Under the pieces are notes generated by a model that was given only the letters and a program-made list of their open reading frames with translations, did no database searches and had not been told where the DNA came from. A DNA stretch of 64,000 nt from Candidatus Heimdallarchaeota archaeon (GTDB taxonomy: Archaea; Asgardarchaeota; Heimdallarchaeia; Heimdallarchaeales; Heimdallarchaeaceae): contig JAUVXV010000003.1 of the NCBI GenBank assembly GCA_030603365.1, positions 64,001-128,000 of the forward strand. Reading direction: 5' to 3'. Position 1 is the stretch's first letter; each line of letters begins with the position of its first letter. The translations under genes and the position numbers were made by a program. Shown piece after piece: positions 1,165 to 4,167 of the stretch.

Positions 1165-3090
1165 ATGAATTCAGTAGAAAAAATGTGCGAAAAATATGCT
1201 ATTGAAAATGCTTTAGGGCACGGAGAAGCACAAGTTGGTCCTGTTATGGGATTAATTCTGAAAGCTAATCCTGAAATGAAAAAAGATGCAAAAAGTATCA
1301 AAGAGATATTGGAAAAGAAAATTGCTTATGTTAATTCATTGAAACCCGAAGAGATACAACAGCTCGCACAACAAAAGTATCCTGAAATTTTACATGAGAA
1401 GGAGAGTGAAACTCAAGAAGGTACTGATTTCATCAGAGCAATCATAGAAGAACATATGAAAAGTGGAAGATTTGGGGGACGTGTTCATACTCGATTCCCA
1501 CCAGAACCGAATGGATGGTTACATATTGGACATGCCTATTCTATAAACTGGAATTACAGTATTGCACAGGAATATGGTGGTAAATTCAACCTTCGGTTTG
1601 ATGATACAAATCCTGTCACAGAAGAAGAAGAATTTGTACAATCAATTATCGCTGATGTGAAATGGTTAGGTGCAGACTTCGAGGATCGATTACTCTTTGC
1701 TTCTGATTATTTTGAACAATTATACGAATATGCAGTTCAGCTAGTTAAGAAAGGCTTAGCTTTTGTTGATGATTCAAGTGTCGAAGAAATAAGAGAAATG
1801 AGAGGAACTCTAACAGAAACAGGAAGAAATAGTTCATATAGAGATAGATCAATCGAAGAGAATCTAGATTTATTTGAAAGGATGAAAGCAGGAGAATTCC
1901 CAAATGGAAGCAAGGTCTTGCGCGCTAAAATTGATATGACCCATCCTAATCTTCTAATGAGAGACCCAATCATCTACCGAATCTTACATGCTACTCATCA
2001 TAATACTGGTGATAAGTGGTGTATCTACCCTATGTACGACTGGGCTCATGGTCTAGAAGATTCACTAGAAGGAATTACTCACTCTCTCTGTTCAATAGAG
2101 TTCGAAATTCATCGACCACTCTATGATTGGTATATAGATCAGCTGGAAGATGAGAACGGAAATCCGATATTTCATTCACAGCAAATTGAATGGGCAAAAC
2201 TGAATGTAACATATATGGTTCTTAGCAAAAGAAGAATGATAAGAGTAGTTAATGAGAAATTCGTTGACGGCTGGGATGACCCAAGAATGCTAACAGTAGC
2301 AGGTATGAGGAGAAGAGGAATCACATCTGAAGCAGTTCGAAACTTTGCACTAAGTGTAGGTGTTTCAAAAAGAGAAAAATTGATTGACATGTCTACTTTT
2401 GAATATTTCATTAGAGACGATTTGGATAAAAGATGTTCAAGAGTGATGAGTGTTCTCAACCCTCTAAAGGTAGTTATTACCAATTATCCAGAAGATATAG
2501 AAGAGCAAATTACTATTCAAAATCATCCAACTAACGAAGAAAAGGGTAACAGACAAGTTAACTTTGCTAGAACACTATATATTGAACAAGAGGACTTCAT
2601 GGAAAACCCTCCTGAGGACTATTATCGTTTAGCTCCAGGGAAAGAAGTTAGGTTGAAATATGCTTATTTCATAACATGTGAAAAAATTATCAAAGATAAT
2701 GAAACCGGTGAAATAAAAGAAATACATTGTACTTATGATCCTGAGACCAAAGGAGGAGTAGCTCCAGATGGTAGAAAAGTAAGTGGAACTATTCATTGGA
2801 TATCAGCTAACCACATCATTGAAGCAGAAGTAAGATTATACGATAGACTATATACAAAGGAAAACCCAATGGATACTGAAGAAGGAGAAGATTTTACAGA
2901 TTGCATTAATCCAGATTCTTTAACAGTGATAAAGTCCTATGTAGAACCATTCTTAAAGGATGTTGAACCTGGTTCAAGATTCCAATTTGAGAGAAATGGA
3001 TATTTTGTAGTGGATATAGTTGATTCTACTAAAGAAAATCTTGTGTTCAATAGAATAATTACCTTAAGAGATTCATGGGCAAAGAAATAA
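1165..3090 (+). CDS. glnS: Glutamine--tRNA ligase with archaeal GluRS-type N-terminal extension
   Basis: TRFPPEPNG-HIGH, LRFDDTNP, YPMYDW, HSLC (Cys as in GlnRS, Arg in GluRS), LSKR, GWDDPR, FQFERNGYF; followed by tRNA-Gln genes. Confidence 0.9.
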   Translation: MNSVEKMCEKYAIENALGHGEAQVGPVMGLILKANPEMKKDAKSIKEILEKKIAYVNSLKPEEIQQLAQQKYPEILHEKESETQEGTDFIRAIIEEHMKSGRFGGRVHTRFPPEPNGWLHIGHAYSINWNYSIAQEYGGKFNLRFDDTNPVTEEEEFVQSIIADVKWLGADFEDRLLFASDYFEQLYEYAVQLVKKGLAFVDDSSVEEIREMRGTLTETGRNSSYRDRSIEENLDLFERMKAGEFPNGSKVLRAKIDMTHPNLLMRDPIIYRILHATHHNTGDKWCIYPMYDWAHGLEDSLEGITHSLCSIEFEIHRPLYDWYIDQLEDENGNPIFHSQQIEWAKLNVTYMVLSKRRMIRVVNEKFVDGWDDPRMLTVAGMRRRGITSEAVRNFALSVGVSKREKLIDMSTFEYFIRDDLDKRCSRVMSVLNPLKVVITNYPEDIEEQITIQNHPTNEEKGNRQVNFARTLYIEQEDFMENPPEDYYRLAPGKEVRLKYAYFITCEKIIKDNETGEIKEIHCTYDPETKGGVAPDGRKVSGTIHWISANHIIEAEVRLYDRLYTKENPMDTEEGEDFTDCINPDSLTVIKSYVEPFLKDVEPGSRFQFERNGYFVVDIVDSTKENLVFNRIITLRDSWAKK

Positions 3091-3131
3091 GCCACCCATT
3101 AGAAAAATTTAAAATCAAAACAAAAAATGAA

Positions 3132-3157
3132 TGGTTGTCAAAGAAATTTGATAACCA
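3132..3157 (+). other. 11-bp hairpin with GAAA tetraloop immediately 5' of tRNA-Gln(UUG)
   Basis: TGGTTGTCAAA-GAAA-TTTGATAACCA with one G-U pair; ends 2 nt before the tRNA. Confidence 0.55.
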
Positions 3158-3159
3158 AT

Positions 3160-3235
3160 AGTCCCATGGTGTAGCCTGGAAACACTCCAGACTTTGAATC
3201 TGGCGCCGGGAGTTCAAATCTCCCTGGGACTACCA
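3160..3235 (+). tRNA. tRNA-Gln (anticodon UUG), CCA encoded
   Basis: Acceptor AGTCCCA/TGGGACT, D-arm GTGT/ACAC, anticodon arm CCAGA-CT TTG AA-TCTGG, T-arm GGGAG-TTCAAAT-CTCCC, A73-CCA. Confidence 0.96.
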
Positions 3236-3270
3236 AATCTTCTTATATATCTATCTAGTTCTTCTTCCTA

Positions 3271-3987
3271 TTACCAAGGCATTTCGTTTCCTTGCCAATC
3301 AAAGAATTTTCCTGTATTTTCAATAACCAGATTATATATTACATCTCGCATTCCACTAACTGATTCCTCAGGTAAAAGCGGTGCATTTGTTGTATATTCC
3401 ATTGTTGTTTTTACCCATCCTGGGTGTATTGAAATTACAGTTATACCTTCTTCCACTAAATCAACAGACAACGTTTTAGTAATCATATTTAGAGCTGCTT
3501 TACTCGCACTATAACTGTAACCTCCACCCTTTTTACTTCTTCTAGTTATGCACCCGCTGCTGGAAGATATATTTACAATAACTGAGTTTTTTCCATTCTT
3601 CAATAGAGGTAAGAATTTCTCTACCATCATAAGAGGGGCTACAGTATTAACTTGAAAAATTCTACTAAAATCTTCTTCTTCTAACTTCCCAAGTTCATCA
3701 CAATATTTTTTTCCTCCAAAACGAATTCCTGCATTATTGATTAGAATATCAAGATAGTCTGTTTCATTAGAAATAAAATCAAAAGCTTTATTCCTTGATC
3801 CCTTATCTGATACATCTAAGTCAACCAAAGCTAATCTGTCAGGATATGTTTTTTTGAGTTCCACTAATTCTGGGTATTTCTCAGGATTTCTGCTACATGC
3901 AAAAACAAGATTCCCTTTTCCCAAATATTGCTTTGTGAATTCGAAACCTAAACCTCTACTTGCACCAGTAATGAAAATTCTTTTCAT
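3271..3987 (-). CDS. Short-chain dehydrogenase/reductase (CsgA/C-factor-like)
   Basis: TGASRGLG, INNAG, YSASK, HPGWVKT, C-terminal FFDWQG..PW. Confidence 0.9.
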   Translation of the reverse strand: MKRIFITGASRGLGFEFTKQYLGKGNLVFACSRNPEKYPELVELKKTYPDRLALVDLDVSDKGSRNKAFDFISNETDYLDILINNAGIRFGGKKYCDELGKLEEEDFSRIFQVNTVAPLMMVEKFLPLLKNGKNSVIVNISSSSGCITRRSKKGGGYSYSASKAALNMITKTLSVDLVEEGITVISIHPGWVKTTMEYTTNAPLLPEESVSGMRDVIYNLVIENTGKFFDWQGNEMPW

Positions 3988-4092
3988 GTAATTAAATTAG
4001 ATATTGTATTTATATTGGTTTCTTGACTGTTTTAAGGATAAGACCAAAACTTTTAATTTCCAATTATCCAAACTCTTTCAATGGTAAATTAT

Positions 4093-4167
4093 AGACCCGT
4101 AGTCTAGCGGCAAGGATACGGGACTCTGGATCCTGAGACAGGCGTTCAAATCGCCTCGGGTCTACCA
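4093..4167 (+). tRNA. tRNA-Gln (anticodon CUG), CCA encoded
   Basis: Acceptor AGACCCG/CGGGTCT, anticodon arm CGGGA-CT CTG GA-TCCTG, T-arm AGGCG-TTCAAAT-CGCCT, A73-CCA. Confidence 0.96.

Follow-up and report, generated by a model that had tools for sequence, protein, structure and literature searches.

A 64,000-nucleotide stretch of the genome of Candidatus Heimdallarchaeota archaeon (GCA_030603365.1, contig JAUVXV010000003.1, positions 64,001 to 128,000; hereafter the window) encodes a glutaminyl-tRNA synthetase (GlnRS; gene glnS) of chimeric construction, in which a helical domain typical of archaeal glutamyl-tRNA synthetases (GluRS) precedes a bacterial-type GlnRS core. We put at roughly 0.7 the probability that this is a functional GlnRS whose core came from bacteria, that it gained the GluRS N-terminal domain (N-domain) in the line leading to two Heimdallarchaeial families, Heimdallarchaeaceae (f1) and Gerdarchaeota (f6; both are database names), and that it charges the neighboring tRNA-Gln beside a retained GluRS and GatDE route. 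According to reviews of 2010 (PMC2978374) and 2022 (PMC9499178), no known archaeon has GlnRS, and archaeal tRNA-Gln is proposed there to block the transfer of this enzyme. Brief mention of GlnRS in Hodarchaeales and Kariarchaeaceae is made in a 2024 preprint. The proteins are already annotated as GlnRS at NCBI, and YqeY-like appendages on GlnRS are likewise known; in the literature that we searched, we found no paper describing the fusion of an archaeal N-domain to GlnRS.

Domain anatomy of the chimeric synthetase

The gene is a single stop-free open reading frame (ORF) at window positions 1165-3090 of the forward strand, which codes for 641 residues. Residues 1-77 (1165-1395) constitute an N-terminal helical domain homologous to the "YqeY" domain of archaeal GluRS, residues 78-86 (1396-1422) a flexible linker that marks the junction, and residues 87-641 with the stop codon (1423-3090) a bacterial-type GlnRS core comprising the catalytic, acceptor-binding, and two anticodon-binding barrel domains. 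In the AlphaFold model, the overall predicted local distance difference test score (pLDDT) is 91.7, with values of 82-95 in the N-terminal helical bundle and below 50 in the linker, and the predicted core superposes on the bacterial GlnRS structures 5BNZ and 4JYZ with a root mean square deviation (rmsd) of ~1.6 Å.

Residues 1-86 match the archaeal GluRS models PRK04156 (E 2.3e-16) and TIGR00463 (E 7.9e-10) and align with residues 3-82 of the M. thermautotrophicus GluRS (3AII; E 2.7e-11), whose N-terminal region was named the YqeY domain by Nureki et al. (PMC2978374). The chimera thus displays the N-terminal YqeY-like domain that is a feature of archaeal nondiscriminating GluRS (ND-GluRS). From the DFIR motif onward (residue 88, nucleotide 1426), the protein scores 688.5 bits against TIGR00440 (cut-off 425.8), which places it in the GlnRS family, and 827.5 bits against PRK14703 (cut-off 681). 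The alignment to the latter extends only to position 558 of 769 and the ORF ends with the core, so that there is no Deinococcus-type C-terminal YqeY extension. Scores against the archaeal GluRS models remain below their cut-offs (TIGR00463, 388 against 402; PRK04156, 365 against 516). The best matches of the core in the Protein Data Bank (PDB) are bacterial GlnRS (663 and 649 bits), as against 370-400 bits for eukaryotic GlnRS and 219 bits for archaeal GluRS. Profile and PDB scores therefore concur on the mosaic anatomy that the original prediction had read from the sequence. With ratios of nonsynonymous to synonymous substitution of 0.09-0.27 for the N-domain and 0.03-0.10 for the core, the N-domain is under purifying selection.

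A search with residues 1-130 recovered ~45 protein clusters from independent assemblies with the identical fusion, which argues that the junction is no product of misassembly. Where they are named, nearly all of these clusters are assigned to Heimdallarchaeota or Asgard; the sole one labeled Bathyarchaeia is identical to a gene in an f6 genome. The same junction occurs in two single-contig genomes, and both GC content and GC at third codon positions are equal on either side of it. These observations leave hardly any credibility to the view that the gene reflects misassembly, contamination, or a Glu-specific enzyme. In favor of misassembly, one might cite that the contigs listed for the four sequencing runs mapped were fragments, none of those listed covering the whole stretch; a near-identical contig over 1396-1655 has ~30 nt left of the junction, just under our rule for bridging. 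Read coverage thus added little, and it is the recurrence across clusters that establishes the junction as genuine. Two database versions devoid of the N-domain (P0050 and P0051) look like late start calls, the core of P0051 being identical to that of a genome (G115) whose frame has the full domain.

Residues governing specificity

We mapped the chimera onto E. coli GlnS and assessed conservation over 18 chimeric enzymes. The residues of the Gln pocket, R30, D66, Y211, C229, F233, and Q255 in E. coli, correspond to R110, D146, Y291, C309, F313, and Q340, and the specificity residues are retained in 100% of the 18 enzymes; specificity for glutamine is inferred from this conservation. The HIGH and KMSKS-type motifs are likewise retained. 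The HSLC signature noticed earlier lies at residues 306-309, with C309 equivalent to the E. coli C229. In the alignment, all chimeric and eukaryotic GlnRS and 99% of the bacterial ones have Cys at this position, and all GluRS have Arg, which speaks against a Glu-specific enzyme and bears out a glutamine-type active site. All of the E. coli anticodon contacts, R341, R402, R410, Q517, E519, and R520, are kept. The loop features described for GlnRS (PMC2978374), namely, the unpairing loop, the G36 loop, and the U35/C34 contacts, are present as R213/L216, R488, R426, Q607, E609, R610, and R496, with L216 corresponding to Leu136 of the E. coli unpairing loop.

Glutamine tRNAs linked to glnS

Two tRNA genes follow glnS on the forward strand: tRNA-Gln(UUG) at 3160-3235, which starts 69 nt past the glnS stop codon and has A1-U72, G2-C71, and U3-A70, and tRNA-Gln(CUG) at 4093-4167, with A1-U72, G2-C71, and A3-U70. 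Both have A73 and an encoded CCA. ARAGORN and Rfam agree on these assignments, upholding the earlier description of both decoding tRNAs as archaeal in type, and no other intact tRNA-Gln gene was detected in the genome, which is 89% complete. Of the bacterial identity set (G73, U1-A72, G2-C71, G3-C70, G10, YUG, A37, and U38), the host tRNAs retain G2-C71, G10, and the anticodon, and differ at 1-72, 3-70, 73, and 38. A promoter scan of the region, made with a tool built for bacterial promoters on a host that is archaeal, returned matches at chance level only. A search for RNA data sets containing this sequence listed none.

A third tRNA-Gln-like gene on the same strand (7399-7475), beyond the positions covered by the original prediction, has intact acceptor and T stems, A1-U72, A73, and CCA, but lacks a normal anticodon loop, a 4-nt loop standing in its place, and scores under the Rfam threshold. 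Anticodon-less genes of this kind are found in 11 genomes of the genus, within the same tRNA cluster and in two sequence subtypes. In each of the 11, every acceptor and T-stem pair is a standard one, several pairs having both partners changed, and the anticodon arm varies freely; the gene thus looks maintained rather than decaying. One guess is that its RNA, which would not decode, acts on GlnRS or GatDE as a ligand or regulator. The stretch 7420-10872 encodes two secreted-looking proteins of 571 and 548 aa, which are paralogs in tandem; for the former, the upstream start overlaps the tRNA-Gln-like gene and is probably wrong. Among f6 genomes, a tRNA-Gln-like gene whose anticodon arm is unusual was also seen (G305:C129 and C241, G277:C233, G229:C64), and several f5 and f6 tRNA-Gln genes have D-arm introns.

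The indirect route in the host

The host gltX scores 416 bits, above the TIGR00463 cut-off, and gatD and gatE also exceed their curated cut-offs; all three are intact, with their catalytic motifs kept. Hence, the direct glutaminylation envisaged in the original prediction would be an addition to the indirect route and not its replacement. An asparaginyl-tRNA synthetase (AsnRS) above its cut-off and a glutamine synthetase are also encoded, the latter gene setting aside the notion of a host without glutamine synthetase; neither GatA nor a separate GatB was found. GatDE falls into two paralog groups in Heimdallarchaeia. The divergent one, with its catalytic motifs kept, is the sole GatDE of f1 genomes, two single-contig ones among them; f6 has it as a second copy, and some f5 genomes have it as well. 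One locus noted is L214:4781-8119 (G000:C5). We considered that divergent GatDE might supply Asn-tRNA and make GlnRS essential, and dropped this because AsnRS scores above its cut-off.

Several peculiarities of the related synthetases were noted alongside. The host GluRS (L134:591-2330) has HIGQ instead of HIGH, a change shared with most GluRS of f1 and some of f2, and the AspRS and GatE of f1 score low on their family models, which hints that f1 translation enzymes evolve fast. The HIGH region of the f7 GluRS (L162, L163) is eukaryote-like, and among archaeal GluRS this enzyme lies nearest in the trees to the eukaryotic GluRS and GlnRS. GluRS-ProRS fusions of ~1,100 aa (P0284-P0316), without an N-terminal extension or WHEP repeats and encoded on short contigs, form, in one tree, a clade sister to animal GluRS.

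Distribution among Asgard archaea

We searched 301 Asgard genomes with the GlnRS cut-off; as these genomes are incomplete, a missing gene is reported as not found. GlnRS was recovered in 40 of them, all from three Heimdallarchaeia families: f1 (21/29), f5 (12/21), and f6 (7/11). It was not found in f2, f3, f4, or f7, in any other family of the host's order, or in the 223 genomes of other classes. The N-domain is present in all f1 and f6 enzymes examined and in no f5 enzyme. A tRNA-Gln gene lies at most 6 kb from the GlnRS gene in 32 of the 40 genomes, which represent three related families and not 32 independent cases. In f5, the GlnRS-linked tRNA-Gln pair has G73 and a separate unlinked set has A73. 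We checked one f5 genome for the linkage of coxABC to GlnRS reported in the 2024 preprint and did not see it within 8 kb. In a search of viral contigs, no eukaryote-type GlnRS was found, and such sequences were obtained from metagenomes and representatives instead; some viral contigs, up to 232 kb long, carry a bacterial-type GlnRS that is compact (534-540 aa) and has an altered PPENSG motif.

Origins of the core and the N-domain

In trees of the core, archaeal GluRS and eukaryotic GluRS branch in that order, followed by a split of eukaryotic GlnRS from the bacterial and Heimdall enzymes (100/99). Consensus sites or indels uniting the chimeric enzymes with bacteria number 7 and 5, and none unites them with the alternatives. 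Direct descent from archaeal GluRS is rejected by the approximately unbiased (AU) test (p 0.002), and union with eukaryotic GlnRS, never seen in the best trees, is 32-74 log-likelihood (lnL) units worse, though not rejected (p-AU 0.09-0.15). On these sequence comparisons, the core belongs to the bacterial-type clade and not to the eukaryotic one. Its entry into Heimdallarchaeia by transfer from bacteria is favored: the best trees nest the Heimdall core within bacteria, often beside a Planctomycetota sequence, and leave Proteobacteria and Deinococcus outside. Nesting is preferred by 11-33 lnL in the densest data set, and the C20 tree recovers it with Shimodaira-Hasegawa-like approximate likelihood ratio supports of 96 and 92. 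The enzymes of f1 and f6, families of different orders, form a tight clade, and no GlnRS was found in the rest of the f1 order, which suggests transfer. A single acquisition may be shared by f5 and f1/f6, with support ranging from 30/13 to 91.

A quite unlikely alternative is that GlnRS predates the split of Heimdallarchaeia and eukaryotes and retained the N-domain of its GluRS parent, the Heimdall enzymes then being the sister group of bacterial GlnRS or its source, with the domain lost in f5 and bacteria. Trees that hold all bacteria together without Heimdall do as well as free ones (lnL +2.5 and +1.1; p-AU 0.55), the N-domain is placed like the second subdomain of the eukaryotic extension, which it matches weakly (4YE6 119-182, Z 5.2), and the position of f5 GluRS N-domains inside those of GlnRS would fit a swap from GlnRS to GluRS. 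Such a relic would require losses in four Heimdall families, and it sits poorly with the failure to find GlnRS in the other Asgard classes, with the preference for nesting, and with the f1/f6 clade described above. Were it true, direct glutaminylation would predate eukaryotes.

The N-domain most resembles the N-domains of f5 GluRS (38-47% identity; BLAST E 1e-17 to 1e-21), with which it groups in two trees (ultrafast bootstrap 100; 94/82), as against 32% identity (E 1e-10) to the host's own GluRS; the core, by contrast, attaches to the GluRS tree at a point beyond eukaryotic GluRS. The simplest account would be a recombination event that involved a Heimdallarchaeial GluRS, with later spread from family to family. 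In the proposed graft onto a native tRNA-binding domain, the word native is consequently apt only at the level of the class, the domain being closer to f5 GluRS than to that of the host. A fold search with the N-domain gave Z scores of 4.7-5.2 to 1NG6, 8XJE, and 4YE6, with unrelated helical matches reaching Z 6.4, and a Foldseek search gave no match; the suggested echo of the eukaryotic N-terminal extension thus extends to a weak structural match and the literature.

Several observations weigh against our preferred account of this enzyme. A position of the Heimdall enzymes as sister to all bacterial GlnRS is not rejected by the AU test in two data sets (p 0.55; their free tree searches missed slightly better trees, so that the supports are rough) or in another (p 0.32), nor is a position basal to all GlnRS (p 0.16-0.21). 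The N-domain trees, built on ~87 columns, reject none of the alternatives (p 0.10-0.39). The chimera also has two changes close to its ATP site, K45->Y and R260->K. Asp235 of E. coli GlnS, which reads G3-C70, is replaced by Ile or Val in the chimeric enzymes, in line with the non-G3-C70 host tRNAs; it is also lost in half of the bacterial sequences aligned, so that the case for a specific adaptation is weak. The apparent trade-off between G73 and the N-domain is not clean, because G73 also occurs in the CUG tRNA of 8 f1 genomes and in f2 tRNA-Gln (G166, G295, G303, G244, G178), where no GlnRS was found; G73 therefore fails as a marker of GlnRS, and the pattern is suggestive only. Because the AU tests do not reject the sister-to-bacteria topology, the horizontal acquisition and graft claimed in the original prediction are favored and not proven.

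Proposed mechanism

After a bacterial core had entered Heimdallarchaeia, the line to f1 and f6 would have gained the YqeY-like domain of a Heimdallarchaeial GluRS. Judging from the sequence and from analogous enzymes, the chimera would activate free glutamine and charge both neighboring tRNA-Gln directly. The equivalents of R341, R402, R410, Q517, E519, and R520 would read the anticodon, with YUG, G10, and G2-C71 being recognized, and the weak A1-U72 pair may be opened by the retained unpairing loop (L216). In the least certain step, the N-domain would raise tRNA affinity in cis and offset the lost G73, G3-C70, and U38, in analogy to the YqeY domain of Deinococcus GlnRS and to the N-terminal domain of the yeast enzyme, loss of the latter raising KM for tRNA 30-fold (PMC3333875). 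The retained GluRS and GatDE route would run in parallel.

That the enzyme makes Gln-tRNA directly but uses the N-domain otherwise, for docking to GatDE or another translation complex or for stability, or carries it through gene-conversion hitchhiking, appears unlikely. The f5 enzymes manage without the domain, so that an archaeon can keep a GlnRS of this core type without strictly needing it; in archaeal GluRS, the domain is disordered in the crystal (PMC2978374); and the linker is predicted to be flexible. On the other side, related helical domains of Deinococcus and yeast GlnRS enhance tRNA affinity in cis, and the purifying selection on the N-domain rules out mere hitchhiking. We think it very unlikely that the chimera is not the main source of Gln-tRNA, acting conditionally, as an auxiliary, or on one tRNA only (possibly the anticodon-less one) while GluRS and GatDE do the bulk of the work. 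The intact gltX and gatDE would fit such a role, as would the A1-U72 pair read by GatDE (PMC2943598, PMC9499178) and the lack of a detected GlnRS in some 88-92% complete f1 genomes (G097, G154). Retention of every anticodon-contact residue would be odd for an anticodon-less substrate, and the strength of purifying selection also argues against it.

Comparison with known synthetases

To bacterial GlnRS (E. coli GlnS 1GTR/4JXX; P. aeruginosa 5BNZ; TIGR00440), the chimera is 51-53% identical, and it shares with them the Gln pocket, the unpairing and G36 loops, and a barrel loop. It differs in its 77-residue archaeal N-domain, in D235->I and the two changes near the ATP site, in its GatDE-keeping archaeal host, and in tRNAs with A1-U72, non-G3-C70, and A73. 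Like the Deinococcus radiodurans GlnRS-YqeY (2HZ7; PMC1865053), it joins a bacterial core to an appended YqeY-like helical domain; the Deinococcus appendage is a 215-residue C-terminal extension related to GatB/YqeY, whereas that of the chimera is N-terminal and from archaeal GluRS. Archaeal ND-GluRS (3AII; PMC2978374) has a homologous N-terminal domain in the same position and the same domain order, but its core is only ~27-31% identical, has Arg at 229, and lacks the GlnRS loops. Eukaryotic GlnRS (yeast Gln4 4H3S, human 4YE6; PMC3333875) also has an N-terminal helical appendage, the second subdomain of which is the weak match mentioned above. Its core forms a separate clade (~36-43% identity), and its N-domain has ~187 residues in two subdomains, any homology to that of the chimera being tentative.

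Other features of the window

A short-chain dehydrogenase gene on the reverse strand (3271-3987), which seems to be a passenger, lies between the two tRNA-Gln genes. Divergent from glnS is a gene for a membrane-anchored glycoside hydrolase of family 18 (34-1080), and a run of large same-strand ORFs (989, 702, 1586, 1608, and 651 aa) spans 21691-40421.

Implications

Heimdallarchaeia constitute a natural experiment on the idea that archaeal tRNA-Gln blocks the transfer of GlnRS. On one side stand f1 and f6, in which the core is coupled to an archaeal helper domain and the tRNAs mostly have A73; on the other stands f5, which has the core without the domain and an extra pair of tRNAs with G73. 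A standing hypothesis on the transfer of GlnRS is thereby made testable.

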